Positions 1,455-58,027 of a stretch of 58,027 nt of DNA are shown here, one piece after another. Location: assembly GCA_028281605.1 (NCBI GenBank), contig JANQJO010000100.1, forward strand, positions 1-58,027, given 5' to 3'. The first letter of the stretch is position 1, and every line of letters starts with the position of its first letter. The stretch is from Pseudomonadales bacterium. GTDB taxonomy: Bacteria > Pseudomonadota > Gammaproteobacteria > Pseudomonadales > JANQJO01. The notes beneath the pieces are model-generated. The model saw nothing but the letters and a program-made list of their open reading frames with translations. It was not told where the DNA came from and made no database searches. The position numbers and the translations under genes are program-made.

Positions 1455-1553
1455 GGAACGTGCGCGAAATAACTTTCACATTTATCACTTCTGAACTCGC
1501 TTTGCTCAAACACGCATCCGCTCTAAATGTTAAAGTTATTTCGTACACGTTCC
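1455..1553 (-). mobile_element. Family 1 palindromic MITE-like element, copy A (99 bp)
   Basis: Arms of about 29 bp (GGAACGTGCGCGAAATAACTTTCACATTT / AAATGTTAAAGTTATTTCGTACACGTTCC) around the conserved core TGAACTCGCTTTGCTCAAACACGCATCCGCTC. Abuts the yraN stop codon. Flanks TTT/CTA do not match. Confidence 0.85.
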
Positions 1554-4998: not shown

Positions 4999-5097
4999 GG
5001 AATGGTCACGAAATAACTTTAACATTTGGGGCGGATGTTTGTCTGAGCGAAGCGAGTTCAGCAGCGGAAAATGTTAAAGTTATTTCGTGACCATTCC
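4999..5097 (+). mobile_element. Family 1 MITE-like element, copy B (99 bp)
   Basis: Perfect 29-bp inverted arms GGAATGGTCACGAAATAACTTTAACATTT; core GCGGATGTTTGTCTGAGCGAAGCGAGTTCAGCAGCG; TAG direct repeat on both sides. Confidence 0.88.
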
Positions 5098-20175: not shown

Positions 20176-20263
20176 TCGTGTTTTCCTCCATAATAACATT
20201 TAAGAAAGAACAAAAAAACGTTCAAAACAGAACGTTCCATCAGTTGAAACTATTAAAATCATA

Positions 20264-20362
20264 GGAATGGTCACGAAATAACTTTAATATTTGGAGCGGA
20301 TGTTTGTCTGAGCGAAGCGAGTTCAGCAGCGGAAAATGTTAAAGTTATTTCGTGACCATTCC
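20264..20362 (+). mobile_element. Family 1 MITE-like element, copy C (99 bp)
   Basis: Nearly identical to copy B (2 differences seen); ATA direct repeat on both sides. Confidence 0.88.
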
Positions 20363-20600: not shown

Positions 20601-20603
20601 TAA

Positions 20604-20621
20604 GGAACGAGCACGAAATAA
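20604..20621 (+). repeat. Solo 18-bp family 1 terminal arm
   Basis: TAA-GGAACGAGCACGAAATAA, then similarity stops; directly after family 2 copy 1. Confidence 0.75.
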
Positions 20622-20643
20622 ATTCCTCATTCATTAAAATTAG

Positions 20644-21522: not shown

Positions 21523-21543
21523 GAAGTAACAATCTAAATTTAT

Positions 21544-21672
21544 TATACTCCCTCACAATTGAATTTTCGGGTTTGTTGCGACACTCACCACTACCCGACC
21601 ACGTATTATTTATACGCTCATGGGCTCACGTTCGTGCTGCGCCGCTCCGAAAATCCAATTGCTGTGGGTATA
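21544..21672 (-). mobile_element. Family 3 ERIC/Correia-like element, copy 1 (~129 bp)
   Basis: TATAC...GTATA ends with imperfect arms (CAATTGAATTTTCGG / CCGAAAATCCAATTG). Minus-strand core GAGCGTATAAATAATACGTG...GCAACAA is shared with 50846-50970. Confidence 0.72.
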
Positions 21673-21711
21673 TATGAATCTGTAATTTTTTTATACTTTT
21701 ACTTTATCTTA

Positions 21712-21812
21712 GGTAAGGCACAGGAAATAATCTACCCATTGTTCTCTTCTGAACTCGCTGTGCTCAAACATGCATCCGCTCAAAATGGGTAGATTATTTC
21801 CTGTGCCTTACC
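21712..21812 (-). mobile_element. Family 1 MITE-like element, copy E (101 bp, alternative arms)
   Basis: Perfect arms GGTAAGGCACAGGAAATAATCTACCCATT / AATGGGTAGATTATTTCCTGTGCCTTACC around the same core; TTA direct repeat on both sides. Confidence 0.88.
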
Positions 21813-21900
21813 TTATATTTAAAAAATAAAACCAACCTGTCAGTAAGCCCTCAAAACTTCAGGACCCTGATAAATTTACCAGAACTATTAAACATTGTCT

Positions 21901-22455
21901 CTAAAAAGACTGTTGTAAATTTGCAAATTTTTTAACCCTAGAATTTTGATCAGGAACTTGTTCTAACGCAGATTGCACACTGTAACGCAATTCACTAATA
22001 TCATAATAATTTTTCTTATAAAATCTAAGCAAGGGTAATTCAGCGATTTTAAATATTTTATCTAAAAACCCAAAACCAACAAAATCATTCTGTAAAGTTG
22101 TCGAAGGATTGATCAATTGAATAGCAGCTAAGATCCGTGTTGTTCTTCTATCACATAAAACAAAATCTACTTGCTGCCGTCTGAGTTGATTATAGGCTTG
22201 AACTTTTTTCTTAAAAGGTAAATCTTTTTGAAGATTGATCAAATCTGATACTTGAATTTTACCCATTATTAAGTATTGATCCCCCAATGCTCTGATCAAA
22301 GATGCTAAAAATTTCCGCTCACTGTTTGTATAAAAATAATGCTTAGGCGCGTAAATTACCTCAGCTTTACCAGGATACAACGCCTCAATACGCATCAAAA
22401 AAATTATACACATAACAAATAATATTGAGATACTTGCAAAAACATAAACAGTCAT
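21901..22455 (-). CDS. DUF2726 family protein
   Basis: N-terminal TM; SERKFL..L..ALG, GKIQVSDLI, VDFVLCD and LPLLRF motifs. Confidence 0.75.
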   Translation of the reverse strand: MTVYVFASISILFVMCIIFLMRIEALYPGKAEVIYAPKHYFYTNSERKFLASLIRALGDQYLIMGKIQVSDLINLQKDLPFKKKVQAYNQLRRQQVDFVLCDRRTTRILAAIQLINPSTTLQNDFVGFGFLDKIFKIAELPLLRFYKKNYYDISELRYSVQSALEQVPDQNSRVKKFANLQQSF

Positions 22456-22626
22456 ACATTCATACTCTCTTTACACGATTGATATTGTACTGGTTCTGCC
22501 AGTATCAGAGATTCACTGTATTTTATAAAGCAATTTATGTTCCCAAAAAATTCAAAAAAGACTTCTTCAGAACTGAAATAAAATCCAAATCAACACTATA
22601 ATCAAATTGTCCATACCCATACTGTT

Positions 22627-25095
22627 TTGTTGTTAAACAAGGATTTCTTAGTATTTATGTGGAAAAATATCAATAGAAAAAGGCATAACAGAAAAAAACT
22701 TCATTCTCTTAACGCATATAATCAAGAAAATCACCTCAATTTAATCTCATCATCAATAATATTAATGTTCGCATATATATTGCCATCAATTATTCACCCT
22801 AATATTAGTTTCGCCACAATGGATACAATTTTATCCAGCATTGAATCTACACAACACACCTCTATTTCATTTTACACGGGCTTATGGTATGGAGTTATAT
22901 TGTTATCTATATTATGTGGCAGCATAGTCACACTGGCTTTAAGAAAAATATATTATGTTTTTTTTATAATACATATTTCAACACTCTTATCAATCAAACT
23001 ATTACTTACAGAGCTACAAGATAATTTTCTGTGGCACTATATTTCTTATGTTAATTCTTATTTCTTAAGTTTTTTGTTGATCACTAGCATAATCAGTATA
23101 ATCTTTTTCTCTAAAGATTTTTTTAGAGAAAAAGATTATACGTTACCCTCTCCATTCAAGTTATCATTTATACGAATTTTCACAATTACTATAGACTCAT
23201 TTAAAAACAAAAATATTTTATATTTTGTTATTGCTTGGAATATACTTTTAAGTGCTCTATTCATTGAAGTATTAAGAGTATCAAACATAATATCTAATAC
23301 ATTTTTTGTGGAAAACTATTTATATGCAGCCTGCTTTTTTGAAAGCCTGTTTATCACTTTAGCCTGCTCTTTAAACGCATTAGAACAAGAAAAAAAAACT
23401 TCAGCACTTGAAACTTTAAGCAAATCTGCTTTAAAATGTAGCACTTTAGCTTACAAAGAAAGAGAGCAAGCCAAGTCTGAAACACGCCACAAAAGTGAAT
23501 TCATTGCGGCCATGAGCCATGAAATAAGAACCCCAATGAATGGTGTCTTAGGAATGACTGAACTACTAACTGATACTAGCTTGAATTTTCGTCAATCACA
23601 ATATGTTAAAACCATACAAAGCTCAGCTCAAATTTTATTAACTATTCTTGATGACATCTTAGATGAATCCAAACTAAAAGCAGGGAAAATGATGATTGAA
23701 ACCATTTCTTTTAACTTAGAAGAGACATTAGAAAAATCCGTTTCTCTGTTTTCAAGAAAGCTGATGTCTCAAGATCTAAAATTTTATGTGTTTCATGATT
23801 TTAATATACCCAGTAATTTAAAAGGCGATGCATCAAGGCTACAGCAGATTATAACAAATTTACTAAGTAATTCTTTTAAATTTACTAAATCTGGTTTCAT
23901 TAAGCTTTCCTCTTCACTGCAACAAACACAAAACAACAAAGCAGTAATTAAATTTTCAGTAGAAGATAGTGGTATTGGTTTAAGTGAAGCACAACAAGGT
24001 AAATTATTTCAATCTTTTAGCCAAGCAGATTCAAGTACTAGCAGGCAATACGGAGGAACCGGTTTAGGTTTATCCATATCGCAAAAACTTGTTCATTTAA
24101 TGGGAGGTGAAATAGGAGTCGAAAGTGCTCTCAACCAAGGATCAATATTTTGGTTCACCATAGAAGTAGAAATAGATGACAATACACAAAACAATTCCAA
24201 TTTTGCTAATCACTGTATTCATTTAATCAGTTGTGATGAGATCCTTAAGCATTGCCTTAAACAATATTTTGACTACTGGGGTATACAGTTCAGCACCACC
24301 GAAATAGAACCATGGCCAATATCAGAAAAAAAAGGGAAAGCTGATATACCTCAAACAGCAGAATTTATTTTGGTTGATGTTGATAGTTTTGGACATAAAT
24401 CTTTAGATTTAATTTATTCACATTATCAAAAATTAACAAATTTTATACCTTTTTATTTTCTCAGTCGTATTTCATCTCTATTAGAACAAGATTCAAATTC
24501 ACAACAAATTGAATATAACCTGTTGGAAGCCCCCCTTACACCCATTCGACTAAAAAGAGCTTTGAACAACTGTTTTTCAAACAATGTAAACAAACAAAAA
24601 CAAGTCAAAGAACTGAACATTAAAGAAGAATTTAAGCAGCTAAACATCCTTATCGCAGAAGATAACCCCGTCAACCAATATGTTATTAAAGGTTTATTGT
24701 CCAAATTTGGCATTATTCCTTCTATTGTTAACAATGGTGTAGAGGTTGTTAAAGCTTATTCACAAAAACCAGAGTATTATAATATTATCTTCATGGACTG
24801 TGAAATGCCAGAAATGGATGGATTCGAAGCCACCCAGAAAATTAGATGCTTTGAAAAAAATCAAGCTTTAAAACCCATTCCAATTATTGCAATCAGTGCA
24901 CATGTTATGCAAGAGCATAAAAATCATTGCTGGTCATCAGGTATGAATGCTCATATCAGCAAACCAATCAGCCGCGCCAAACTTCAAGAGTATTTAAGTT
25001 TATACGCCAATAAAATAAGACAATCCCAACAAAAGACAAAACAACAAAGCATTTCAAAAAAAATAAATTACAATGTTAATAGTAAAAAAATGTAA
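22627..25095 (+). CDS. Hybrid sensor histidine kinase/response regulator
   Basis: H-box [15 protein letters not shown]-box [11 protein letters not shown]-boxes DSGIG and GGTGLGL; C-terminal receiver (AEDN, FMDCEMP, SKP); hydrophobic N-terminus. True start uncertain. Confidence 0.92.
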
Positions 25096-25228
25096 ATCCT
25101 TAATAAACCAACAGCAGTTCAGTTTCTTTTAAATTACTCTTTACATTCGTCAGATTATTTAACATCTGAATCTTACAACAGCTTATATACACGTATTAAT
25201 TCATTGTAATTAAATCAATATCAGTTAA

Positions 25229-25244
25229 TGGCGTAATGATTGCT
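25229..25244 (+). promoter_or_regulatory. Sigma-54 (-24/-12) promoter candidate
   Basis: TGGCGT-AATGA-TTGCT matches TGGCAC-N5-TTGCW; lies upstream of a PEP-CTERM-like gene. Confidence 0.65.
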
Positions 25245-25340
25245 TACAAGTCATAAGAACTAATCTTTGTGATTATATCTCTTGGTCGCATAAAATTAAT
25301 TATGCTTTATGGCAACAAACCAATAGGAAGAGTTAACGTT

Positions 25341-26093
25341 ATGTCTATTTTTTTAAAAAAAATATTAAAGGTTATGCCTTTTTGTATCGCAGCTGTCATA
25401 TCTGGTCACACACTGGCTATACCCTACCAAGTACTGATGGATGACGTTGTATCAGCTAATTGGGCCGATATGCACGATGGAGTTGGGGATTTATATGATA
25501 CAGGAAGCGTCAAGCAGATAGATGTGAACTATCAAGAGCGAGTCACATGGGGTAATTCAGCCACGGGTGACCCTGACCCACAGTTTTGGGAAAGCCTGCA
25601 ATACGGAAACAATCATAAAGCCATTTTTGCCAATCAAGGTGGCACAGAAGTGTTGGAAGTCGAAATTAACGGTTTAAACGGTCATACCGTTGAATTAAAA
25701 CAAGTCATTCTAGGACGCTGGTATCCTGATGCGATTAATACTCTAGGAAGTGATTGGCGGCTGTACGATGGAGCTTGGAATCTCTTAGATTCAGGTAACA
25801 CAGTGATGACCGACTTCGTTGATTATTTCCTTAATTTCAACTTTGGTAGCTTTGATACATTACGTTTTCAATTAGGTCACGATAATTGGGATAACGGCAT
25901 AATTGGTTTTACTTTCGACACAGACGTTGCCAACGGCGTACTGGATCTTGTCCGTGATGATATAGAAGCCCCCACACCTAATGTACCCGTAACACCGCCA
26001 AACATCAATGTATCTGAGCCTAGTATAAGTGCTCTTTTTGCATTATGTATTGGGTTACTTATGTTAAGAGGTCGTGAGAGAGGCTTCCAGTAA
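25341..26093 (+). CDS. PEP-CTERM-like sorted surface protein (VSEP variant)
   Basis: Signal peptide from the ATG at 25341 (AGGAAG upstream; track starts at 25269); Pro/Thr linker; C-terminal VSEPSISALFALCIGLLMLRGRER. Confidence 0.78.
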   Translation: MSIFLKKILKVMPFCIAAVISGHTLAIPYQVLMDDVVSANWADMHDGVGDLYDTGSVKQIDVNYQERVTWGNSATGDPDPQFWESLQYGNNHKAIFANQGGTEVLEVEINGLNGHTVELKQVILGRWYPDAINTLGSDWRLYDGAWNLLDSGNTVMTDFVDYFLNFNFGSFDTLRFQLGHDNWDNGIIGFTFDTDVANGVLDLVRDDIEAPTPNVPVTPPNINVSEPSISALFALCIGLLMLRGRERGFQ

Positions 26094-26117
26094 ATATCAA
26101 AGCTCATCTTTACACAC

Positions 26118-26145
26118 ATCGCCGATGGTTAACAGCATCGGCGAT
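26118..26145. terminator. GC-rich hairpin after the PEP-CTERM-like gene
   Basis: ATCGCCGATG-N8-CATCGGCGAT perfect 10-bp stem; no clear U-tract. Confidence 0.5.
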
Positions 26146-26219
26146 ACTTAAAAGTTGAATCTAACCATACTTCTTAATCTACAATCTGAAAACTCCAATC
26201 TACCAAAAAAAAATAAACT

Positions 26220-27605
26220 ATGCTTCAACCAAATACAATAAAAAAGCCGAGTGATAAAGTAGATTCGTACGCAGAAACGGAAGCACAACCGCGTCTTAGC
26301 AAAAAAAGAAAGCGCACTGATCCAGATTCAAAAAAAAAGCATACAGCAAGATTATCAACAACTAATAAAATAGAAAAAATGAGGGGACCGAACACTAAAA
26401 AAATAATATTGTCCGGCATCTGTCAAAAGCATCATCAGAAAATTGATCGTGTTTCTACTCCAGACCTCTTGAATAGGCATCAAACAGAAGGTTGGGGTAA
26501 ACATGAAAATAAATTGATAGGCCAAGGAAGACTAAACAGGGTATATTGTGAATGGGGAGAGGTGTTAATAAAATGCTCAAGTGAAATAAAACCAGAAAAG
26601 ACAGAAAAAGAATATCAAACGCAGTTATTCGATAAGATTATAAATCAACTGGCTTTACAACACCTTCATAATTGCTCAGAAGAAATTGATAGTAAAATTC
26701 ACAGATCATTCAAAAATCACGAAAACTATGAATTAATTGAATTTGTCTTACCAACAATTAAATTTCCCAAACCCTATGGTATCTTCAATAGCAATGGTTA
26801 TGGAGAAATCATTGCATGTGAAAGCTTAGAGCCTTCAGGGTCAGAAAAAGCGATGAATTTGATTGAAATGATTCAACTTAGCCCTGGTGGGCATATCGAA
26901 AATGACAAACAAATAGTTATTGCGTTTCAACTTTTGTTGTGTCTCTTTAAAATGAAATCGGCTGGAATAGTACATGGGGATATTAAATTAGAAAACATTA
27001 CTCTAAATATGGAAGATAATCACATTTGGCCTCTTGCAATGATTGATTTAGGCTATTGTAAAGCTTTTCAAAACCAAGAAGGCAGCAACTTTAAAAAAGT
27101 AATGGAATCTTACTGTGAAAATAAAGATTTAACCGATCACATAATTGAATCTTCCGGACTATTAGATTTTTTTCACAGTATCAATGGGACATCAAGGTAT
27201 ATAGCCCCAGAAACTTTAAGAAAATGCCAGAAGAAGAAATATAACACTGAAATAGATTTAAATAAATCAGATATTTGGTGTGTTGGAATAGTCCTTTATA
27301 TCTTGCAATTTAAGACCTTCCCATTTGAGAAACAAGCACAGTACCATACAGTTGAAATGAAACCTCTTCATAAAGATATTCTTGAAGAGTCCGAATATGG
27401 CAAACTTATTTTAAAAATGTTAAACCAATCGGAAACAGAAAGACCAGATGTAGTTGAGTTGATTAATGATCTTTTGAAGATCCCTGCCTTAAAATCAGCT
27501 ATCCCGTTTAAAGACAAGATTGGCAATCTGCTCGGAAATCAAACCCATCAAAAAAATCAAAACAGCTGTCACCAACAACAAAGCGCTCATATTAGTAAAG
27601 CGTGA
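26220..27605 (+). CDS. Eukaryote-like Ser/Thr kinase, putative effector
   Basis: GQGRLNRV, VLIK, HGDIKLEN, IDLG, GTSRYIAPE and DIWCVG motifs; basic N-terminal extension. Confidence 0.8.
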   Translation: MLQPNTIKKPSDKVDSYAETEAQPRLSKKRKRTDPDSKKKHTARLSTTNKIEKMRGPNTKKIILSGICQKHHQKIDRVSTPDLLNRHQTEGWGKHENKLIGQGRLNRVYCEWGEVLIKCSSEIKPEKTEKEYQTQLFDKIINQLALQHLHNCSEEIDSKIHRSFKNHENYELIEFVLPTIKFPKPYGIFNSNGYGEIIACESLEPSGSEKAMNLIEMIQLSPGGHIENDKQIVIAFQLLLCLFKMKSAGIVHGDIKLENITLNMEDNHIWPLAMIDLGYCKAFQNQEGSNFKKVMESYCENKDLTDHIIESSGLLDFFHSINGTSRYIAPETLRKCQKKKYNTEIDLNKSDIWCVGIVLYILQFKTFPFEKQAQYHTVEMKPLHKDILEESEYGKLILKMLNQSETERPDVVELINDLLKIPALKSAIPFKDKIGNLLGNQTHQKNQNSCHQQQSAHISKA

Positions 27606-28370
27606 AAAATTGACAAAAGTATAACTGTAATACCCTACACCTAACATAAAAAAGAACAAACTGATAGGCGTAAAAATTTTCAAGGGAGAATACAAGGTCC
27701 CTATTTTAAAAATAATAAGTAAAAACTTAACGCCATCTTTCCAAACATTAATATGGCTTTTACCAATACGTTCAGGCGCTACAATAGGCACATAGCTGAT
27801 CGCATAGCCGGCTCTAAAAAAAGCCATGGTCACCGTCGTTGGATAAGAAAAGCCATTAGGCATCAAATACAAAAACTCAAGAATCTTTTCTCTACGGACA
27901 GCTCTAAATCCAGAAGTTAAATCTAAAACCGTATGACTCACCATCCAAGAAGCCAACTGATTATAAAAAGCATTACCTAACAAGCGTGCTAAGCTGGCCT
28001 GTGAAGCTTTATTTCGTGCCCCCACAACCATATCATACCCTTGCGATAAACGTTCTAATAAAGAGTCAATTGCTTCGGGTCGATGCTGACCATCTGCATC
28101 CATTAACACTAAAATATCTGAACAAGCATGACGAATCCCAGTTTTCACTGCCGCTCCATTGCCTTGACTGTAACGATGAGAAACCACCTCTACTTGCGAG
28201 GACTCACACACCGCTACCGTATCATCTGTTGAACCATCATCCACCACTAAAATTTGGGCTTCTGGAAATTTTGCTCTCAATTGTGGTAATAAAGAAACTA
28301 ACGATTGCGCTTCATTTTTTGCAGGTAATACAATCGAAAGGTTTTGAGTAAGCTTCGTGTTCATACGCAT
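27495..28370 (-). CDS. GT2 glycosyltransferase (Dpm1/GtrB-like) with C-terminal TM helices
   Basis: SIVLPAKNE, VVDDGSTD, MDADGQH and DLTSGFRA motifs; two C-terminal hydrophobic segments. Confidence 0.88.
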   Translation of the reverse strand: MRMNTKLTQNLSIVLPAKNEAQSLVSLLPQLRAKFPEAQILVVDDGSTDDTVAVCESSQVEVVSHRYSQGNGAAVKTGIRHACSDILVLMDADGQHRPEAIDSLLERLSQGYDMVVGARNKASQASLARLLGNAFYNQLASWMVSHTVLDLTSGFRAVRREKILEFLYLMPNGFSYPTTVTMAFFRAGYAISYVPIVAPERIGKSHINVWKDGVKFLLIIFKIGTLYSPLKIFTPISLFFFMLGVGYYSYTFVNFSRFTNMSALLLVTAVLIFLMGLISEQIANLVFKRDS

Positions 28371-28396
28371 ATTCCCTCATCAATCAGCTTCTAAAG

Positions 28397-30376
28397 TCAG
28401 TTTGGCCTACTTTGCGTTCTACCTTGCAAATTTTGTGATAAAGATTGCAACAATCCTTGATATTTGAGTTTCAATTGAGGCTCCAAAGTCTCAGCATCAA
28501 GACGATGTAATACCTGATGACTCTCCTCATAACGAGCCGCTGCAAACAGGGCCATTGCCAAATTAATCGTATATAAACTTTGCTCTGGTACCAACTGCTC
28601 AGCCTGAGCAAAATAATACACCGCAGGTTCAATTACACCTTGTGTTAAGGTATAAACACCAACCTCATGCCAAAAATGAGCTTTATACTTCCCAGCAAAG
28701 CTCTGATTAAGGTCCACAGCCTGCACCATTTGATTAATGAATCCGATATCGTTGCGACAGTGCTGGCTGGTTTGGCACTGCATAAAATCAAATAAATGGT
28801 GTCTGTTTTCATTATCCATCACCACAACAGGCAAACGCTCTAACAATACAGTTTGCCAACGCACCTCACTCGGCAAACCTACACGATCGTTTAATCTAAT
28901 CAGACCGAGCAAACCTGATAAGTTGTTATCATCGGCTTGATAAGCCAAAGTCAAATGCTCTTTGGCTTTCGTATAATAAGCTTCATTAACACCCTGAACA
29001 CCCTGCTCAGCTTGCGCAATCACTTGCGCGAAATACCATCTAGCTGCTGCGTATTGGCTACGCGCAGAATCAGCCTTACGCACCACCTCTGAAGCCACCA
29101 AGTGTGGCCAATCCTGCCAATGGGATGCCCGCAGAGTAGTCCCAGTAAACATCAACAACACAAAAGCCCAAGCCCATTTTGGCGTCATGAGCCTTTGCAA
29201 CTGAGGCACCTCAGCTACTTTTTGTACCAACGCGTACAGCGCTAATAACAAACCAATCATTGGAAAATAGTTACGATGCTCATGTACCAATTCTAAAGCA
29301 AAAATACTAGACTCCAAGCCATGCCCAATTAAAAACCAACTCATGCCCAATGCAAACAAAGGCCTCTTGTGACGCCAATACCACAGTAAAACCAAGACCA
29401 TAACCCAGGCCAATAAGGCAACAAAAGTACTCACAGGAACAAAAAGGCCTTTAGACAAAACAAAATCATCATGAAATAAAGACATCAAACCCACATCAGG
29501 CAAAACAATTAAACGGACATAAAACCATAAAGCTCTTGCTTGGGTCAGCAAACGTTCCATCAATGAAAAAGATCGTGTCTCATAGCCCTGGCTAACCCAT
29601 TCCCAATGTGCTAACAACACACTCCCTGCTAACACCATTAAGACGCCAAACAACCCCCAAAACACCTGCAATGCGAGACGAATTCGCCCAGACTGAGCAC
29701 GAAAACGTAAAATAAACACTTCCAAACTAGCAAAAACCACCCATAAGCACAGCGCATTTTCCTTACTCAACAGGCCTAACAACCAGGCACTCAAACATCC
29801 TATGAGATAAGGCCAAGCCCACTTCCCCTGCTCAATTTGCAAACGACGTGCTTGCAAATAAGCATATAAAGACAATAACATCCATAAAGTAGCTAAACTG
29901 GTCATACGTTGTACTACATATAACACAGAAGTTAAATTCAAAGGATGTAGTAGCCAAATAGAAGCTAGGCATAACGCGACACCCTGAATCTGCTGTTGCC
30001 CCGTTGCTAAACGCAACAAACGATGCAAAACCACAAGCAATAGACAACCTGCCAGCATATGTATCATAAGATTAGTTAATTTAAAGATAAACGGCTCTAA
30101 GCCTGCACCGTAATAATTGATCGCTAGCGTAAATAAAGCCACAGGCCGCCCTAAAGGCCCGGTTTGAGAAGAGGTCAACGCATGCTCGATAGCATCAAAA
30201 GTTAAGACTTTAAGGTGTAACGCACTGTTTTCAACGAAGGTACTAAAATCATCAAAGACAAAAGGGCCAGAAAGACCAGGACTGTAGGCAATGCAGGTAA
30301 GCAGTAAAACCGCACAAAAAGCCCTAACTATATGGTCTTGAAACAATTTGCCGAGCTTCCTACTCACCCCTGTCAT
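28397..30376 (-). CDS. Multi-TM GT-C-type glycosyltransferase with TPR tail (TMTC/TfpW-like)
   Basis: GPFVFDD, GRPV, LHPLN..SVLYVVQR, LLSKENA and EHRNYFP motifs; TPR-like C-terminus; immediately downstream of pilA. Confidence 0.75.
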   Translation of the reverse strand: MTGVSRKLGKLFQDHIVRAFCAVLLLTCIAYSPGLSGPFVFDDFSTFVENSALHLKVLTFDAIEHALTSSQTGPLGRPVALFTLAINYYGAGLEPFIFKLTNLMIHMLAGCLLLVVLHRLLRLATGQQQIQGVALCLASIWLLHPLNLTSVLYVVQRMTSLATLWMLLSLYAYLQARRLQIEQGKWAWPYLIGCLSAWLLGLLSKENALCLWVVFASLEVFILRFRAQSGRIRLALQVFWGLFGVLMVLAGSVLLAHWEWVSQGYETRSFSLMERLLTQARALWFYVRLIVLPDVGLMSLFHDDFVLSKGLFVPVSTFVALLAWVMVLVLLWYWRHKRPLFALGMSWFLIGHGLESSIFALELVHEHRNYFPMIGLLLALYALVQKVAEVPQLQRLMTPKWAWAFVLLMFTGTTLRASHWQDWPHLVASEVVRKADSARSQYAAARWYFAQVIAQAEQGVQGVNEAYYTKAKEHLTLAYQADDNNLSGLLGLIRLNDRVGLPSEVRWQTVLLERLPVVVMDNENRHHLFDFMQCQTSQHCRNDIGFINQMVQAVDLNQSFAGKYKAHFWHEVGVYTLTQGVIEPAVYYFAQAEQLVPEQSLYTINLAMALFAAARYEESHQVLHRLDAETLEPQLKLKYQGLLQSLSQNLQGRTQSRPN

Positions 30377-30382
30377 CAGCTT

Positions 30383-30425
30383 CTATCCATAATCCATCCA
30401 TAATCCATCCATAATCTATCCATAA
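30383..30425. repeat. 11-bp tandem repeat (~4 units) just upstream of the GT-C gene
   Basis: C(T/C)ATCCATAAT at 30383, 30394, 30405 and 30416 (last unit imperfect). Confidence 0.85.
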
Positions 30426-30443
30426 AACAAGCTTACCTAACAT

Positions 30444-30472
30444 AAAAAAAGCCACACTAAGAACGTGTGGCT
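30444..30472 (-). terminator. Rho-independent terminator downstream of pilA
   Basis: On the minus strand, AGCCACAC-N7-GTGTGGCT followed by a T run. Confidence 0.75.
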
Positions 30473-30535
30473 GAGGATGGTTGATTGTTTTATAATCTTT
30501 TCTACTAAACAGTATCGATATGGGGTCGCATCGCG

Positions 30536-31009
30536 TTACTGCCTACAATCTGTTGGTAAGTAACGAGAAGCCAAGTTAGTAGTACCTGAAGTCGCAACTG
30601 ACACACCCGATGGAGCACTGGCTCGACCACAAACCCAAACAATCTGGTTAGCAGGGTTGGTTCCAGGTGATAGCGCTAAAGTTTGACCAGAGATATTTGC
30701 ATTCACCCTATTACCAAAAGTCACCGTAATTGCACCTGAGCTCACATTAATACCAGAGACATAGTTACCAGTATAACTGGAGTTAGCCGCCAACCCAGCC
30801 GAAGCATTATTAGAAGGCATAGAGCCACGAGTTGAATAATAGTCAGATACCGCTGCTTTCAACTCACTGGTCATGTTCAAACCTTCTGAAACCTGCGAAC
30901 GAATAGTGTAATCTTGATACTGTGGTACAGCGACTGCGGCTAAGATGCCAATAATAGCCACCACAATCATCAATTCGATCAGAGTAAAACCTTGCTGACG
31001 TGCTTTCAT
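30536..31009 (-). CDS. pilA: Type IVa major pilin
   Basis: Class III leader QQG|[18 protein letters not shown]; C-terminal Cys pair; divergent from pilBCD. Confidence 0.95.
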
Positions 31010-31099
31010 GTTACTTCTCCAAAAAGTTTGGGGTTGGGGTGTTGGTTGTTTAAGTTCAAAACGCTTTTCACGCTTAATTCAAGTCTCAAATAATTAGAA

Positions 31100-31115
31100 T
31101 GCAGCGCTTGTGCCA
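31100..31115 (-). promoter_or_regulatory. Sigma-54 promoter of pilA
   Basis: Minus strand TGGCAC-AAGCG-CTGCA about 90 bp upstream of pilA; pilA is RpoN/PilR-dependent in Pseudomonas. Confidence 0.72.
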
Positions 31116-31246
31116 AATCTGATCAATACACCTACTGACAGACTAGTGGGCAGATTTTGCGGTGCTTTTTTGCTTAGGTCAATAAAAAATATGAACACAC
31201 CCTCTCTTTTTTCTTGCCGGATACTGTCCTTTTTAGGAGGATTTAC

Positions 31247-31259
31247 GACAAATTTTGTC
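31247..31259. promoter_or_regulatory. Candidate upstream activator (PilR-type) palindrome
   Basis: GACA-AATTT-TGTC about 130 bp upstream of the sigma-54 site. Confidence 0.4.
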
Positions 31260-31408
31260 AGCCGCAAACACGCTATAATGAAAGCATACTACATAATTGA
31301 TCAATGGAAAAAAGACACAACAAACTTACAATGCTTTAAAAAACGTAAACTTGATACAATGCCTAACGTTTATCTTAATCAATTGTTATATCCAACAGAG
31401 CTAATATC

Positions 31409-33124
31409 ATGGCACCAGCACCGAATGGAAATATATTAAGCGGACTGGCCAGACGGCTGGTAGAAGATGGCATTTTAGCTGAAGAAGACGCCCTGAAAAC
31501 ACAGGAAGAAGCCTCAAGCCAAAACCTACACTTTGTTTCACATCTTATTGAAAGCCAATTAGCCGACTCCAAAACCGTGGCTGTGGCCGCCAGTCATGAA
31601 TTTGGAATTCCAGTGATCTTAGTCGATGCCATAGATATTGAGGCGTTACCCAGAGATATTGTCTCTGAAAAACTGATCTTACAACACCGCGCTCTACCGT
31701 TATATAAGCGCGGTAATCGTTTATTTGTCGCTGTTTCTGACCCTTCCAATGTACTTGGTATTGATGAGATCAAGTTCAACACAGGTTTATCTACAGAGCC
31801 GGTTTTAGCAGAAGACGACAAGCTTACCAAATTAATTGAGAAATACCTTGAAGACGCCGATAAGTCATTGGATCTAGACGACTCCGAATTCGATGAACTG
31901 GATATTGACACTGAAGACCCCAATGCTCGCCAAGAAGATGACTCGGATGTCGCAGATGACGCCCCTATCGTTCGTTTTGTAAACAAAGTCTTATTGGATG
32001 CTATCAAGTTAGGGGCCTCAGACATTCATTTTGAGCCTTACGAAAAAGCCTATCGTGTACGCTTTCGCTACGATGGTATTCTCAAAGAAATCACACGTCC
32101 ACCGATTGCGATTTCTGGCAAAATTGCTGCTCGCCTAAAAGTGATGTCAAGCATGGATATATCCGAAAGACGTGTTCCACAAGACGGTAGAATTAAGCTT
32201 AAGCTATCAAAAAACCGCGCCATTGATTTTCGTGTTAACACCTTGCCAACATTATGGGGTGAAAAAATTTGTCTGCGAATTTTAGATCCCGACAGCGCCA
32301 AGCTAGGTATTGACTTACTAGGATATGAAGAGCATCAAAAAGCACTGTTTCTAGAGGCCCTAGCCCAACCTCAAGGCATGATCTTAGTCACAGGCCCTAC
32401 CGGTAGCGGCAAAACAGTATCACTTTACACGGGGTTAAACATTCTTAACACTCAGGAACGAAATATCTCAACCGCAGAAGACCCAGTAGAAATCAATTTA
32501 GAAGGAATCAATCAAGTCAATGTAAACAATAAGGTAGGGCTCAACTTCAGCTCAGCGCTACGAGCTTTTTTACGCCAAGACCCCGATGTGGTCATGGTTG
32601 GGGAAATTCGAGACCTGGAAACAGCTGAAATTGCCATCAAAGCTGCTCAGACAGGTCACTTAGTATTGTCTACACTTCATACTAATAGTGCACCGGAGAC
32701 ATTAACCCGACTGCGCAATATGGGCGTACCATCTTTTAACATTGCCACTTCGGTGTCTTTGATTATTGCCCAGCGTTTAGCAAGAAGGCTTTGCAGTCAT
32801 TGCAAAGCCCCAGCCAACATCCCCAAACAATCACTGCTTGAATTTGGGTTTGAACAAGAGGAACTGGATGACATTACCATTTATGAGCCTGTTGGCTGTG
32901 AAAAATGCAACAATGAAGGCTACAAGGGACGTGTTGGCATTTACGAAGTGGTTAAAGTGACTGAAGCCATTGCACGCATTATCATGGAAGACGGCAATTC
33001 AATCCAAATTGCAGACACATGTCGCAAAGAAGGATTCGAAGATTTAAGAGCGGCCGGTCTACAAAAAGCCCGCAGCGGAGTGACCAGCCTAGCAGAAGTA
33101 AACCGTGTTACCACAGGACATTAA
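31409..33124 (+). CDS. pilB: Type IV pilus assembly ATPase
   Basis: ASDIHFEP, GPTGSGKT, LRQDPDVVMVGEIRD and tetracysteine motifs. Confidence 0.96.
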   Translation: MAPAPNGNILSGLARRLVEDGILAEEDALKTQEEASSQNLHFVSHLIESQLADSKTVAVAASHEFGIPVILVDAIDIEALPRDIVSEKLILQHRALPLYKRGNRLFVAVSDPSNVLGIDEIKFNTGLSTEPVLAEDDKLTKLIEKYLEDADKSLDLDDSEFDELDIDTEDPNARQEDDSDVADDAPIVRFVNKVLLDAIKLGASDIHFEPYEKAYRVRFRYDGILKEITRPPIAISGKIAARLKVMSSMDISERRVPQDGRIKLKLSKNRAIDFRVNTLPTLWGEKICLRILDPDSAKLGIDLLGYEEHQKALFLEALAQPQGMILVTGPTGSGKTVSLYTGLNILNTQERNISTAEDPVEINLEGINQVNVNNKVGLNFSSALRAFLRQDPDVVMVGEIRDLETAEIAIKAAQTGHLVLSTLHTNSAPETLTRLRNMGVPSFNIATSVSLIIAQRLARRLCSHCKAPANIPKQSLLEFGFEQEELDDITIYEPVGCEKCNNEGYKGRVGIYEVVKVTEAIARIIMEDGNSIQIADTCRKEGFEDLRAAGLQKARSGVTSLAEVNRVTTGH

Positions 33125-33127
33125 TAC

Positions 33128-34393
33128 ATGACAGCTCAAGCACAAGCCAAAATGAAAAAAGGGATTAAAACCAGCCAAGTCTCTTCTAACAAACAACAAA
33201 TCTTTAGTTGGGAAGGCACTGACAAACGTGGCAACCGTACCTCAGGAGAAATTTCTGGAGTCAGTATTGCCCTAGCTAAAGCTGAACTCAGACGCCAGGG
33301 TGTGATCACTTCCAAAATCAAAAGAAAGCCCAAACCTTTATTTGGCACGGCCAACAAAAGAATTAACCCACTTGATATTGCCGTTTTCACCAGGCAACTA
33401 GCCACAATGATGAAAGCTGGTGTTCCCTTAGTGCAATCTTTTGATATCGTTGCTGATGGTTTAGAAAACCCTTCGATGAGCAAGTTGGTTCGAGACATCA
33501 AAACAGGCGTAGAATCTGGTAACAGTTTGGCTGCCTCATTGCGTAAATACCCTCAGCACTTTGACGATCTCTTTTGTTCTCTCGTGGCCTCTGGCGAACA
33601 ATCAGGTGCTTTGGAAAATATGCTCGATAGGGTTGCAACCTATAAAGAAAAAACTGAAGCGCTAAAGTCAAAAATCAAAAAAGCCATGAAGTATCCAGCC
33701 GCTGTTGTTGCAGTAGCCATCATCGTGACCGGTATCTTATTGGTCAAGGTGGTTCCTACTTTCCAAGAACTATTTCAAGGTTTTGGCGCCGATCTACCTG
33801 CCTTTACTCAATTTGTGATTGGTATTTCAGAATGGATGCAAAGCAGTTGGTTCATCATGGTTCTCGGTATTATAGGAGGTATGTTTGTCTTTAAAGAAGC
33901 TAAAAGGCGCTCGCAAACTTTCTCTGATGCACTCGATAAACTCTACTTAAAGTTGCCTGTTGTTGGTAATATCTTATACCAAGCCACAGTCGCACGTTTT
34001 GCCAGAACTTTATCAACTACCTTTGCTGCTGGTGTTCCCTTAGTGGATGCTTTAGACTCAGTGGCCAGCGCCACAGGTAACGTCGTTTACAAGAGAGCTG
34101 TCCATAAAATAAAAGATGACGTTTCTTCAGGCCAACAGTTGCAATTTAGTATGAAATCTACCAACGTTTTCCCCCCTATGGCTGTACAAATGGTTTCCAT
34201 TGGTGAAGAATCAGGTGCTTTAGATGCTATGTTAGATAAAGTAGCGTGTTACTATGAAGAAGAAGTGGACAACGCTGTTGATGGTTTAACCAGTTTAATG
34301 GAGCCTCTGATTATGGCCATTCTCGGTATTTTAGTCGGTGGTTTAATTACCGCAATGTATCTACCGATCTTCCAATTAGGTTCAGTGGTTTAA
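33128..34393 (+). CDS. pilC: Type IV pilus platform protein
   Basis: FTRQLATMMKAGVPL, GEQSGALE and GEESGALD repeats (T2SSF domains). Confidence 0.95.
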   Translation: MTAQAQAKMKKGIKTSQVSSNKQQIFSWEGTDKRGNRTSGEISGVSIALAKAELRRQGVITSKIKRKPKPLFGTANKRINPLDIAVFTRQLATMMKAGVPLVQSFDIVADGLENPSMSKLVRDIKTGVESGNSLAASLRKYPQHFDDLFCSLVASGEQSGALENMLDRVATYKEKTEALKSKIKKAMKYPAAVVAVAIIVTGILLVKVVPTFQELFQGFGADLPAFTQFVIGISEWMQSSWFIMVLGIIGGMFVFKEAKRRSQTFSDALDKLYLKLPVVGNILYQATVARFARTLSTTFAAGVPLVDALDSVASATGNVVYKRAVHKIKDDVSSGQQLQFSMKSTNVFPPMAVQMVSIGEESGALDAMLDKVACYYEEEVDNAVDGLTSLMEPLIMAILGILVGGLITAMYLPIFQLGSVV

Positions 34394-34447
34394 CCAGCTT
34401 TATATATATACCCAAGGAATGCACAAACACAATAGTGATCATCATCT

Positions 34448-35353
34448 ATGCTGGCTGACATGCTGCTGTTTTTATCAAACAATGCAGCAGCTTTTTACAC
34501 AGTAACCTTTATTTTTGGGCTGGTGGTAGGCAGTTTTCTCAATGTCGTCATTCACCGTATTCCTATCATGTTAGAACGTTCTTGGTATGAAAGCGCCAAA
34601 GCCTTTTTACTAGAAGAGAATGCCAACAACCAAATACAAGCAAGCAAATACGACAAACGAATCTTTAACTTACTTTATCCCAATTCATATTGCCCTCACT
34701 GCAAACAACCAGTCAAGGCTTGGCAAAACATTCCATTGATCAGCTACGGCCTATTACTAGGTAAATGCCAGCATTGCAAAACACCTATTTCTCTACGCTA
34801 CCCTCTAATTGAACTTATAGCTGCTCTACTCTGCCTGGCTATTACTTTACGCTTTGGTTTAACCCTCGAGTCTGCTTTAAGCTTAATGTTCACCTGGACT
34901 TTGTTATGTTTATCTGTGATTGATTACGATCACCATCTATTACCAGATCAATTGACCTTACCTTTACTCTGGGTGGGCTTATTGGCCAGTACACAATCTT
35001 TATTTACTACTCCCACAGATGCTATCTTAGGTGCCAGTTTGGGTTATCTAAGTTTATGGTCAGTCTATTGGATTTTCAAATTAATCACAGGAAAAGAAGG
35101 TATGGGATACGGAGATTTCAAATTACTTGCGGCACTAGGCGCATGGTGTGGCTGGCAAGCACTGCCCAGTATTATTGTCTGGTCTTCTTTAGTTGGCGCC
35201 ATCATTGGCATTGGCTTAGTTGTGTTATACAAACGTGACCGTAACAAACCTATTCCTTTTGGACCATATTTGGCTATAGCCGGTTGGCTATATTTTTATT
35301 TCGGGGACAATATCGATATTCAGCAGTGGATGCTGCTACCGGGCACATATTAA
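34448..35353 (+). CDS. pilD: Prepilin peptidase/N-methyltransferase
   Basis: GSFLNVVIHR, two CxxC pairs, GMGYGDFKL and PFGPYLA motifs. Confidence 0.96.
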   Translation: MLADMLLFLSNNAAAFYTVTFIFGLVVGSFLNVVIHRIPIMLERSWYESAKAFLLEENANNQIQASKYDKRIFNLLYPNSYCPHCKQPVKAWQNIPLISYGLLLGKCQHCKTPISLRYPLIELIAALLCLAITLRFGLTLESALSLMFTWTLLCLSVIDYDHHLLPDQLTLPLLWVGLLASTQSLFTTPTDAILGASLGYLSLWSVYWIFKLITGKEGMGYGDFKLLAALGAWCGWQALPSIIVWSSLVGAIIGIGLVVLYKRDRNKPIPFGPYLAIAGWLYFYFGDNIDIQQWMLLPGTY

Positions 35354-35452
35354 GGAACGAGCACGAAATAACTTTAGCATTTGTCGCTCCTGAACTCGCT
35401 TTGCTCAAACATGCATCTGCTCTAAATGTTAAAGTTATTTCGTACATGTTCC
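35354..35452 (-). mobile_element. Family 1 MITE-like element, copy F (99 bp)
   Basis: Same arm type and core as copy A; TAA direct repeat on both sides, the left one being the pilD stop codon. Confidence 0.88.
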
Positions 35453-35502
35453 TAAAATGTATATTCTTAATATGCATTGCCATCGGTGCTCACTAGCAGT
35501 AA

Positions 35503-35563
35503 TTTACCGTGCAAATGCAATTTTCATCACCTGGGGTGACGAAAATTACATCGCTCATGGCTG
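35503..35563 (-). mobile_element. Family 2 61-bp hairpin element, copy 2
   Basis: TTTACCGTGCAAATGCAATTTTCATCACCTGGGGTGACGAAAATTACATCGCTCATGGCTG followed by TTTC. Confidence 0.8.
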
Positions 35564-35935
35564 TTTCGATAGATAAGCGCATACCTAGCCTCTCTAAATA
35601 CATATTCTAAATGATACTTTGACGCCCAATGGAACGGAAAGTACCGGTAAGTGTATTATTTGACCACATAATAACAACAAATGTTCAATTGCTGTTATAG
35701 TATACTAAACCCTAAATAAACAAAAGTTAATATGTAATCTATTGATATTTAATAAGAGTTCCGAAAAATGACGATTAAAAGGAACAACCACCCTACCCTC
35801 TTTGAATGGCCGAAAACACGGTTATTATGTGCTGAATCGCCATTTTGTGAATCAAAGTGCTGCCAACTCATTAAGTGGCGTTGTTGATGGTGCGTAGATT
35901 AAATTCAAACCTGTTTAATTTATAACCTTTACATG

Positions 35936-35962
35936 GGTGCAATTCCGGTGCATAATTGAACC
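35936..35962. promoter_or_regulatory. Imperfect palindrome upstream of the TA pair (candidate antitoxin operator)
   Basis: GGTGCAATT-N9-AATTGAACC about 27 bp before the antitoxin ATG. Confidence 0.4.
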
Positions 35963-35988
35963 ATAATTAATGATGGGAGAATTGAGCC

Positions 35989-36240
35989 ATGTCTAGACCT
36001 AGACAAAGTATTACTTTTACTGAACCTAATGACGAATGGCTTGCAGCACAAGTGGACAGCTTGGAGTACAGTAGTAAAAGTGATGTCGTCAATGATTTGA
36101 TACGACGTGCACGCCAACAAGAAGAAGAAAAGGAAATGATTCGAGCTAAACTTGTCCGCGCAGAACAAAGTGGTTTAAGCAGTAGAACACCAGAACAAAT
36201 CCGTCAAGAGGCAAAGTTACGGTTAAAACCGAATGCCTAA
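35989..36240 (+). CDS. ParD-like ribbon-helix-helix antitoxin
   Basis: MSRPRQSITFTEPNDEWL...EYSSKSDVVNDLIRRAR; overlaps the toxin start. Confidence 0.85.
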   Translation: MSRPRQSITFTEPNDEWLAAQVDSLEYSSKSDVVNDLIRRARQQEEEKEMIRAKLVRAEQSGLSSRTPEQIRQEAKLRLKPNA

Positions 36241-36526
36241 ATATAAACTGCACATCACTAAAGAAGCTGATCAAGACCTCGATCGTATCTACGAAGAAGG
36301 ATTCACAACATGGGGAGAGCAGCAGGCAGATAACTATTACGATGATCTCCTAGCCCACTTTGATATCCTGTGTGAAAATCCTTATCTATTTCGCGCAGTA
36401 GACGAGATCAGAAAAGGCTACCGGCGTAGTGTTTGTGGCAAACATTCGGTCTATTACCGTATCGTCAGTGATACTCTTGAAGTTATGGGACTCATTAAAT
36501 ATGAGAATCGGTACGGTAATGGTTAA
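36233..36526 (+). CDS. RelE/ParE family toxin
   Basis: EADQDLDRIY..G..TWGEQQAD.Y and IRKGYRRSVCGKHSVYYR motifs. Confidence 0.88.
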   Translation: MPKYKLHITKEADQDLDRIYEEGFTTWGEQQADNYYDDLLAHFDILCENPYLFRAVDEIRKGYRRSVCGKHSVYYRIVSDTLEVMGLIKYENRYGNG

Positions 36527-47187: not shown

Positions 47188-47286
47188 GGAACGTACACGA
47201 AATAACTTTAACATTTGTCACTCCTGAACTCGCTTTGCTCAAACACGCATCCGCTCTAAGCGTTAAAGTTATTTCATGCACGCTCC
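47188..47286 (-). mobile_element. Family 1 MITE-like element, copy G (99 bp)
   Basis: Copy A-type arms and core; CTA direct repeat on both sides. Confidence 0.87.
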
Positions 47287-56094: not shown

Positions 56095-57606
56095 TTACAT
56101 TAACACAACATCATAATGTTCTGGGTGATAAAGCATTTCCGCCTGAAAATTAATTGTTTTACCAATACATTTTGCCAAATCAGCCACATTAGATGACTCT
56201 TTGTCCAGTAATTGACCAATCACGTCCTCAGAGGCTATAACCAAATAACCTTGCGCATTGTATTGCGTTGAAACTCTTAAAATTTCACGATAAATTTCAA
56301 AACAAATACTCTCACAGGTTTTAATAAAACTTCTACCGTCACACATCGGACAAGGGTGACACAAAATTTTTTCTAAACTTTCTCTCGTACGTTTACGAGT
56401 CATTTCAACTAAACCAAATTCTGACATATTGGTAATTTTAGTTTTAGCATGATCCTTTTCTAAATATTTTTCAAAATGACACAATACTTGATGAATATGC
56501 TCAGCATCTTGCATATCAATAAAATCAATAATAATAATGCCCCCTAAATTACGTAACCGCAACTGACGAGCGATGACTGCTGAAGCCTCCAAGTTTGTTT
56601 TAAAAATCGTTTCCTCTAAACTCTTACTGCCAACAAAAGCACCTGTATTGATATCTACTGTAGTCATCGCTTCAGTTTGATCAATAACCAAATAACCACC
56701 TGATTTTAATTGCACTTCCCGATGCAATGCTTTATTGACTTCCTCTTCAATACTGTAAAGATCAAAAATGGGGCAAGATTCACTATAATATTCTATTTTA
56801 TCCGTCACCTTTGGCATAAAGTCTTTAACAAAATTTTTCACATTCTCATAAACTTCGTAATCATCAATACGCACACGTTCAATTTCAAATTTGGCCATGT
56901 CACGAATAACGCGTAAGAATAAAGGTAAGTCTGCATAAATGACATAACCTGGCTCAACCACATTCATTTTATTTTTTATTGAAACCCAACGCTTAAGTAA
57001 AAAATTTAAATCTCCCTCCAGAGCCTCTGCACTAACCCCCTCTGCTACAGTTCTAACAATAGCTCCCCTCAGTGGTGACACCCCTGTGTGCTCTTTTTGG
57101 ATGGCAAACATAGCGTTTTGTACGAGTGTTTTTAAACGTTCTCTTTCCTGTTCACATTCAATTTTTTGTGAAACACCGATATGATTGATACAAGGCATTA
57201 ACACTAAATATCGAGAGGGAATAGATAAATTGGTCGTTAAGCGTGCTCCTTTAGTACCCATCTGATCTTTGACAACTTGCACAACGATAGTTTGCCCTTC
57301 AGTCAATAATGATCGGATATCAGGAACAGCATTAGATTGATCTAACTCACTCGATTCTTCTCCCAAAAGACAGTTTGAAATATCACCAGCATGGATAAAC
57401 GCAGCCCGCTCCAAACCAATGTCCACAAACGCAGCTTGCATCCCCGGCAGCACTCTTAGCACCTTTCCTTTAAAGATAGCCCCAACTCGACTGCAATGCT
57501 GTTCACGTTCAATGAATATTTCTTGTACTATGCCATTCTCTAAAATTGCCACACGATTTTCAGCAAACGCACAGTTGATCAATATCTCTTCACTTGCTAC
57601 AAGCAT
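56095..57606 (-). CDS. rng: Ribonuclease G
   Basis: RVLPGMQAAFVDIG, KGARLTT, DQTEAMTTVDINTG and RLRNLGGIIIIDFIDM motifs; about 500 aa. Confidence 0.95.
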   Translation of the reverse strand: MLVASEEILINCAFAENRVAILENGIVQEIFIEREQHCSRVGAIFKGKVLRVLPGMQAAFVDIGLERAAFIHAGDISNCLLGEESSELDQSNAVPDIRSLLTEGQTIVVQVVKDQMGTKGARLTTNLSIPSRYLVLMPCINHIGVSQKIECEQERERLKTLVQNAMFAIQKEHTGVSPLRGAIVRTVAEGVSAEALEGDLNFLLKRWVSIKNKMNVVEPGYVIYADLPLFLRVIRDMAKFEIERVRIDDYEVYENVKNFVKDFMPKVTDKIEYYSESCPIFDLYSIEEEVNKALHREVQLKSGGYLVIDQTEAMTTVDINTGAFVGSKSLEETIFKTNLEASAVIARQLRLRNLGGIIIIDFIDMQDAEHIHQVLCHFEKYLEKDHAKTKITNMSEFGLVEMTRKRTRESLEKILCHPCPMCDGRSFIKTCESICFEIYREILRVSTQYNAQGYLVIASEDVIGQLLDKESSNVADLAKCIGKTINFQAEMLYHPEHYDVVLM

Positions 57607-57645
57607 ATGCCCTAACTGCTCTCTTATTTGTGTACTTTAAAATAA

Positions 57646-57807
57646 GGTAAGGCACAGGAAGTAATCTACCCATTGTTCGCTTCTAAACTCGCTGTGCCCA
57701 AACATGCATCCGCTCAAAATGGGTAGATTATTTACCGTGCAAATGCAATTTTCATCACCTGGGGTGACGCTTATTACATCGCTCATGGCTGTTTCCTGTG
57801 CCTTACC
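57646..57807 (-). mobile_element. Family 1 MITE-like element, copy H (E-type arms), interrupted by a family 2 element
   Basis: 162 bp = 101 bp (as copy E) + 61-bp insertion in the right arm; TAA direct repeat on both sides. Confidence 0.88.
57731..57791 (-). mobile_element. Family 2 61-bp hairpin element, copy 3 (nested)
   Basis: Inserted between GGGTAGATTA and TTTCCTGTGCC of copy H; the empty site is visible in copy E. Confidence 0.85.
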
Positions 57808-57932
57808 TAAAATGGAGTCTCTATACCCAACCTTTCATTTTACAATATAATCATAATCAAGCACGGCACTGATACAGTTTTTGGTGAAGCATTTCATTTT
57901 CACCCAATACACCGATATTGCTCAGTCCCTTA

Positions 57933-58027
57933 GGAGGTGTCCCAGAATAAAGTTTACAATGTGAGCGGATGCATGTCTGAGCGCAGCGAGTTCAGGAGCG
58001 AAGCTTGTAAACTTTATTCTGGGACAC
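57933..58027 (+). mobile_element. Family 1 MITE-like element, copy I (fourth arm type; cut by window end)
   Basis: Arms GTGTCCCAGAATAAAGTTTACAA / TTGTAAACTTTATTCTGGGACAC around core GAGCGGATGCATGTCTGAGCGCAGCGAGTTCAGGAGCGA; TTA on the left. Confidence 0.85.

Follow-up and report, generated by a model that had tools for sequence, protein, structure and literature searches.

Introduction

Correia/NEMIS elements in Neisseria, RUP in Streptococcus pneumoniae and ERIC are, in the excerpt of the review cited here, shorter than 200 bp, non-coding and A+T-rich, with terminal inverted repeats, target duplications, many mostly intergenic copies and a long hairpin (PMC2229807). The standard traits of bacterial MITEs are taken from the same excerpt, which adds that some known MITEs carry an internal functional motif, such as the IHF site in Correia elements (PMC2229807). 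In the portions of two papers drawn on here, REP/REPIN sequences (RAYT, HUH) are described as short palindromic intergenic repeats with more than 100 copies, hairpins and subfamilies, one end of the REPs being marked by a conserved tag, GTAG or CGTC (PMC2817692, PMC3733652).

The repeat family reported here resembles the Correia/NEMIS, RUP and ERIC elements in all of the respects listed above. The object is very probably a bacterial MITE, which we call Tourist-like, and what is noteworthy about it is a near-invariant central module that is common to unrelated arms. In the literature outside subscription journals, topic searches gave no earlier account of the family, and searches with its sequence gave, among the papers listed, only chance matches to primers. 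Unlike in known bacterial MITEs, it is the internal 39 nt and not the ends that are best conserved. The target duplication is 3 bp (TWA), compared with the TA that the excerpt gives as usual in bacterial MITEs (PMC2229807), and, unlike in Correia elements, no IHF-like consensus was recognized in the core by eye. The general features of REP/REPIN sequences are also found in this family; unlike the REPs, it has GG..CC ends, 3-bp duplications and a conserved loop instead of a tag at the foot of the stem. A further comparison is with the IS5 family and its eukaryotic relatives, PIF/Harbinger with the Tourist MITEs. The ends of the present family have a GG start and a GAATAA-like box, in partial likeness to those of IS5A of E. 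coli K-12; no intact IS5-family transposase with these ends was found in the assembly. An integron attC site was considered and rejected, since the pattern is the reverse of the one seen here: attC sites have conserved end boxes and a variable centre, whereas this element has a conserved centre and variable arms.

Structure of the element and its copies in the window

The 48-base purine-rich stretch at 57958-58005 of the window (the whole 58,027-nt stretch of DNA that was analysed) reads as given in the initial annotation, and the consensus derived there from eight copies is real. Its 3' half, GAGCRNAGCGAGTTCAGNAGCGA, matches eight sites in the window with at most three mismatches, compared with 0.01 expected by chance, and none of 100 shuffles reached eight. 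The consensus also holds over 118 ungapped copies in the genome. It is very probable that the palindromic element of about 100 bases to which this stretch belongs is a MITE, and that the 48 bases are its unpaired middle. The copies in the window and the parts of the copy at its end, here called copy I, are as follows.

57933..58027, forward strand: copy I, subfamily D; right arm incomplete at the window end, which is the contig end (C146)
57930-57932: TTA preceding copy I, whose left arm GGAGGTGTCCCAGAATAAAGTTTACAA starts at 57933
57937-57959 and 58005-58027: arms of copy I, 23 nt, 100% complementary (inverted-repeat scan)
57963..58001, forward strand: conserved core of copy I, GAGCGG...AGCGA, 39 nt, the unpaired centre of the palindrome; spacers TGT to its left and AGC to its right, with the right arm from 58005
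57646..57807, reverse strand: subfamily C copy; TAA on both sides (57643-57645 and 57808-57810)
57734-57794: 61-nt copy of a second repeat family, interrupting one arm of the 57646..57807 copy
47188..47286, reverse strand: subfamily A copy, 99 bp; CTA at each end, or TAG when read along the element
35354..35452, reverse strand: subfamily A copy, 99 bp; TAA on both sides
21712..21812, reverse strand: subfamily C copy, 101 bp; TTA at each end, or TAA when read along the element
20264..20362, forward strand: subfamily B copy, 99 bp; ATA on both sides
4999..5097, forward strand: subfamily B copy, 99 bp; perfect 29-nt arms and TAG on both sides
1455..1553, reverse strand: subfamily A copy, 99 bp; complementarity of the arms 90%, flanks without a clear duplication

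All eight window copies have inverted arms of 23-35 nt that are 85-100% complementary (inverted-repeat scan). The element, 99-101 bp long, has GG..CC ends and terminal arms of 27-30 nt that start with GG. Between the arms lies a centre of 39-45 nt, of which the 39-nt core is separated from the arms by spacers of 2-4 nt. Among the 53 copies in the genome with both arm ends typed, element length ranges from 98 to 103 bp and is mostly 99 or 101. No ORF of 80 aa or more lies inside the element copies in the ORF list of the window. As DNA, the whole element folds alike on both strands (-32.0 and -30.7 kcal/mol, z about -11). The suggestion that the stretch is a cruciform tip comes close to the truth in so far as it is the tip of a long palindrome.

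The 3-mers on the left and right flanks are identical in 41 of the 53 typed copies: TAA in 15, TTA in 15, CTA and TAG in three each, TTG in two, and CAG, CAA and ATA in one each, so that TAA/TAA or TTA/TTA flanks account for 30 of the 53. The occurrence of the non-palindromic 3-mers CAG, TTG, CAA, CTA and TAG amongst them indicates that the flanks are directly duplicated and do not continue the palindrome. For the target, a T-W-A consensus was obtained, with TTA in 19 and TAA in 17 of 47 copies, a set that had been pre-selected for identical flanks and thus shows preference only. Taken together, the small size, the lack of coding capacity, the terminal inverted repeats, the duplication of fixed length and the many intergenic copies identify the family as a MITE. 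The left TAA of the 35354..35452 copy (35351-35353) is the stop codon of the ORF 34448..35353; the insertion duplicated this TAA and so left the gene intact. Genome-wide, the duplicated TAA doubles as a stop codon in only three of 51 copies.

The only run listed as containing the window sequence is a DNA run labelled coral metagenome; no RNA run is listed. Amongst contigs of three DNA runs over 19500-36500, no joint that skips an element, that is, no empty site, was seen; these contigs simply end at element copies. No tRNA or tmRNA genes were found in the window.

Several other features were noted beside these copies. The second repeat family, about 61-68 nt long, reads GAAACAGCCATGAGCGATG...GTCACCCCAGGTGAT...GAAAATTGCATTTGCACGGTAA; it contains an internal hairpin, lacks terminal inverted repeats and gave 129 blastn-short matches in the genome. 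In the window it occurs at 57734-57794, 20536-20590 and 35513-35567; the first of these, inside the MITE arm, has TTT on both sides, and the other two lie 60-170 nt from MITE copies. In all subfamily D copies the arm together with the duplication reads TAAGGAGGTGT (57930-57943 in copy I), a strongly Shine-Dalgarno-like string found 51 times in the genome. The complementary string, at the opposite end of the element, presumably resembles the 3' end of 16S rRNA, no such 3' end being assembled in this genome. The ORF 22627..25095 contains, at 23096-23141, a further inverted repeat that pairs perfectly over 20 bp around a loop of 6 nt (GTATAATCTTTTTCTCTAAA / TTTAGAGAAAAAGATTATAC).

Copies across the genome

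The genome assembly (3.65 Mb, 40% G+C, 162 contigs, 96% complete) contains 168 copies of the core, of which 138 are full-length (nhmmer core profile, E of 0.01 or less, over all 162 contigs). Forty-nine of the 168, copy I included, lie within 90 nt of a contig end, and the presence of one MITE family at 49 of 324 contig ends indicates that the family breaks the assembly. Stems of 20 bp or longer with three or fewer mismatches are present in 85 of the 119 internal copies, and 49 of the stems are perfect. Away from contig edges, 103 of 104 copies are intergenic and one lies inside an ORF, as judged from crude ORF calls. No piece of the core longer than 14 nt was found outside element copies in this genome. 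The family thus accounts for the repeat called Family 1 in the initial annotation and for many of the contig breaks, which is of value for annotation and assembly.

The copies split into subfamilies by arm sequence, and five arm types, A to E, were named. Their arms start with GGAACGTG in A, GGAATGG in B, GGTAAGGC in C, GGAGGTGT in D and GGGCCTGT in E. Five chimeric copies were examined, each with the left arm of one subfamily and the core and right arm of another (C113:2560-2720, C86:40740-40900, C129:43100-43260, C157:14560-14720 and C108:39130-39300), the crossovers falling towards the 5' end within the core. At least two of these chimeras (on C113 and C86) keep identical TTA flanks, which suggests that pairing between the arms may not be needed for insertion, given that the arms of these chimeras do not match.

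Comparison between lineages

Outside this genome the core is sparsely distributed. It was found in two of 41 relatives and in two of 401 genomes sampled from the order, this genome being counted each time. An exact scan of species genomes gave, among the matches listed (at least 22), nine true elements, four of them from one Gammaproteobacteria MAG of the same order and the other five from two further Gammaproteobacteria MAGs and one labelled Francisellaceae; the remaining 13 listed matches are chance matches in high-G+C sequence that lack the 5' half. All of the 12 metagenome loci bearing the core are true elements. The core was absent from the plasmid collection, the phage collection and the viral contigs searched.

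The copies in the small MAGs (1.4-1.6 Mb, with one to three copies each), one of which is labelled Francisellaceae, are here termed F-type. Their arms (TAGCTTTTCAGATAATTATTTTGG, with TAGC ends) are unrelated in sequence to those of this genome and are flanked by TA and not by 3-bp duplications, and the copies sit in unrelated intergenic contexts. The F-type copies share 88% identity with those of this genome in the core and 35% in the arms. The two arms change together. Alignment A1 comprises 33 distinct copies, drawn from five genomes and from metagenome loci; both partners have changed in 31 of its 38 arm pairs, and 87% of arm cells are paired, compared with 37-45% after displacement of the partners by one to three columns. 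Whereas it is the ends that usually define a MITE, in this family they drift, both arms in step, and the middle is nearly fixed from host to host.

Within the five subfamilies no such difference was observed, the deviation from the subfamily consensus being 0.029 (110/3800) for the arms and 0.030 (90/2964) for the core. Mutated cores also occur in decayed copies of the small genomes. A core that is held between lineages, in copies whose arms and core decay equally, implies that the constraint acts on the spreading lineages. A few relatives lack the core. In one (L092, G402:C96:422-480) it is replaced by the short mirrored loop TGAGC-AGTT-GCTCA, and in another (G019:C28:2884-2934) the arms are only 13 nt apart; these short-loop relatives look like palindromised derivatives.

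Transposition

The 3-bp target duplications in 41 of 53 copies argue for cut-and-paste transposition by a DDE-type enzyme and not by a HUH enzyme. HUH elements of the IS200/IS605, IS91 and REP/RAYT kinds are not known to leave such duplications. The proposal in the initial annotation that the stretch is a HUH or transposase substrate can be retained to the extent that it belongs to an element moved by a transposase, the HUH type being unsupported. A 3-bp TWA target duplication is typical of the IS1031 and ISL2 groups and of Tourist elements, whereas IS5 duplicates 4 bp. The ends of IS5A from E. coli K-12 (GGAAGGTGCGAATAAG / GGAAGGTGCGAACAAG) resemble the arms GGAACGTGCACGAAATAAC and GGAGGTGTCCCAGAATAAAG in the GG start and the GAATAA-like box, a likeness that is short and that needs indels of 2-3 nt in the alignment.

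A search with five profiles (PF01609, PF13340, PF13586, PF13359 and PF13358) found no autonomous insertion sequence whose ends match those of the element; the assembly is 96% complete and is broken at repeats, so that absence from the genome does not follow. Arm matches in G019 likewise gave nothing with such ends. The PF01609 matches have other ends, PF13359 gave no match in the assembly, and the sole match to PF13358 (IS630-type) is a fragment at a contig start. A degenerate IS5-like gene with one in-frame TGA lies at C118:26642-27385, its DUF4096 and DDE_Tnp_1_2 matches being below the Pfam cut-offs, and a 1.1-kb insertion sequence at C17:33180-34301 has 23-nt ends, CCTTCGTACACGACAATTTTTAG, and two TAG stops in its transposase frame. 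No pairs of arms 0.5-3 kb apart were found in the genome, and about 20 solo arms are truncated copies and not the ends of longer elements.

It is proposed that a DDE transposase of the IS5 or PIF/Harbinger kind acts in trans and mobilizes the element as double-stranded DNA, in which case "Tourist-like" would be the appropriate description. The arms may be kept complementary by occasional fold-back during replication, in which mismatches would be copied across (quasipalindrome template switching), or else by selection on pairing itself. Quasipalindrome template switching is an established mutational route in E. coli, and the short-loop relatives look as if they had arisen by it.

Possible functions of the conserved core

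Mini-hairpins of the d(GCGAAGC) type and tandem sheared G.A motifs are known in DNA, and the main inference of the initial annotation was that the purine-rich strand alone folds in this way. In its full form this would be a rod of G.A tandems with a GGA/GNA zipper and a GC-RNA-GC mini-hairpin, read by a HUH enzyme, a primase or similar. The nested symmetry on which it was based is at chance level. When Watson-Crick and G.A pairs are allowed in helices of two or more, four core variants give 13-14 nested pairs and shuffles average 13.1-14.3, with 79-93% of 500 dinucleotide shuffles pairing as well as or better than the core; the composition of a purine-rich 39-mer alone yields the claimed symmetry. 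None of the six proposed Watson-Crick pairs changes on both sides, although the core hardly varies and the covariation test consequently has little power either way. Greater conservation at the GA and GNA positions had been expected of such a fold, yet other positions are better conserved: the column entropy averages 0.37 over the 13 GA/GGA/GNA positions (N42 left out), 0.27 for the 12 proposed Watson-Crick positions and 0.14 for eight supposedly unpaired positions (TGT 20-22, T24, A31 and GTT 36-38). In the proposed triloop of the 118 copies, R is G in 67 and A in 51, N is A in 67, C in 47 and T in four, and the final A is kept in 117. The sequence GC-GNA-GC of the d(GCGAAGC) type is therefore present in the 67 copies with G at position 29, and the A in the other 51 removes the G.A pair that would close a GNA loop. 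The N of the apposed GNA is free (A in 39, C in 37, G in 41 and T in one). As DNA, the core by itself folds less well than its shuffles, whichever strand is taken (z +1.1 to +1.9), which is weak evidence given that nearest-neighbour models score sheared G.A stacks poorly.

The orientation of the copies was also considered. No bias relative to transcription was observed, with 30 sense and 26 antisense copies in tandem gene settings; with the purine strand as the forward strand, a further 30 lie between convergent and 17 between divergent genes. For replication, a weak bias is present, the purine strand being the same as the local G-rich strand in 52 copies and opposite to it in 75 (p 0.05). It is not robust, as the split with copies masked ranges over eight window and threshold settings from 53-68 against 78-89 (p 0.03-0.15), and since the copies are not independent it is not counted as a finding.

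Some observations do agree with a fold of the purine strand. The positions that vary between lineages (18, 19, 23, 29, 30, 42 and 47) all fall at the loops or the free N of the model, the arm covariation shows that the element can form a hairpin displaying the core as its loop, and an A26 to C change in one decayed copy (L096) would turn the proposed A.G apposition into a C-G pair beside the mini-hairpin. The excess of the purine strand on the C-rich strand points the same way, as does the presence in the genome of one Y1 (HUH) transposase gene, IS200-like and matching PF01797 (E 6e-36) at C130:14-370. That gene occurs only once, is truncated by the start of its contig, has DHVRML at the position of the HUH motif and lies on a contig without element copies, and the 3-bp duplications are unlike what HUH elements leave. 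With pairing no better than in shuffles and GA positions less conserved than the supposedly unpaired TGT and GTT, the strand-specific fold of GA tandems found no support as the main inference; it is needed to explain nothing that was seen, and we consider it highly unlikely. The core might instead act as RNA, transcribed alone or together with neighbouring genes, a long double-stranded stem displaying it as a loop, perhaps with a YUGAGC / GUUCAG hairpin, for the binding of a protein or another RNA. The minimum-energy fold of the core does use a hairpin of 23-28 with 36-41, which is kept in 98% of cells and whose closing pair is U.G in 19 and C-G in 13, both tolerated in RNA. Against this, no pair of the hairpin changes on both sides, the core folds no better than shuffles (z +0.15 to +1.8), and the orientation of copies to the flanking genes is random. 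The window gave no Rfam 15 match at the gathering threshold, 57600-58027 gave only chance matches to miRNA hairpins (E 0.15-6.2, with E up to 10 allowed), and scans of three copies predicted neither a promoter nor a terminator within them. Decay of the core in single copies at the rate of the arms further argues against a function for the host in each copy, and a role as RNA appears improbable.

A third possibility is that the core has no function and is a passive spacer, inherited from a recent common ancestor through horizontal transfer, with arms that were swapped through the core or that simply change faster. The five chimeras examined demonstrate arm exchange through crossing-over inside the core, short-loop relatives without it exist, and it folds poorly as DNA. 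A long unfolded loop would in itself lower the risk that a bacterial palindrome is cleaved or lost. Such a history would, however, need a more than tenfold difference in divergence between adjoining segments (88% against 35% identity), whereas core and arms decay equally within subfamilies, and for arms to be swapped through the core, unrelated arm families must already have had it. A functionless core is considered unlikely.

The preferred explanation is that the core is a cis-acting sequence which active ("master") copies would need in order to spread. Its conservation between lineages, together with its free decay in single copies, points to a cis part of the element and not to a host function exercised copy by copy. 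The chances that it is cis-acting for the spread of master copies, most likely as the binding site of a transposition factor or of a host factor common to Gammaproteobacteria, are judged to be about evenly balanced. A transposase normally needs only the ends of an element, and an internal required site is unusual for an element moved by a transposase. The occurrence of the same core within what seem to be two types of ends, one with GG and 3-bp duplications and the other with TAGC and TA, fits a shared host factor or cargo better than a single transposase. The consensuses of known motifs were compared with the core by eye: neither the IHF, sigma-54, sigma-E, LexA, DUS and dif sites nor the hammerhead, K-turn, T-loop and CsrA GGA motifs fit it.

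A more far-reaching form of this explanation is conceivable but doubtful. The 39-nt module could be a portable cis-element that is passed between MITEs with unrelated ends (GG with TWA, and TAGC with TA) in distantly related Gammaproteobacteria, shown as a single-stranded loop when the element folds back, and recognized there, as DNA or as RNA, by a conserved factor through which the element spreads more readily.

Implications

If the core is indeed a required cis-site, the spread of these MITEs would be limited by a factor besides the transposase that binds their ends, and the 39-mer could be used as bait for that factor. Should the module also prove portable, it would represent MITE cargo of a new kind as well as a new motif for loop recognition, in which case the idea of a strand-specific single-stranded signal would have been right in spirit and wrong in the detail of its GA zipper.
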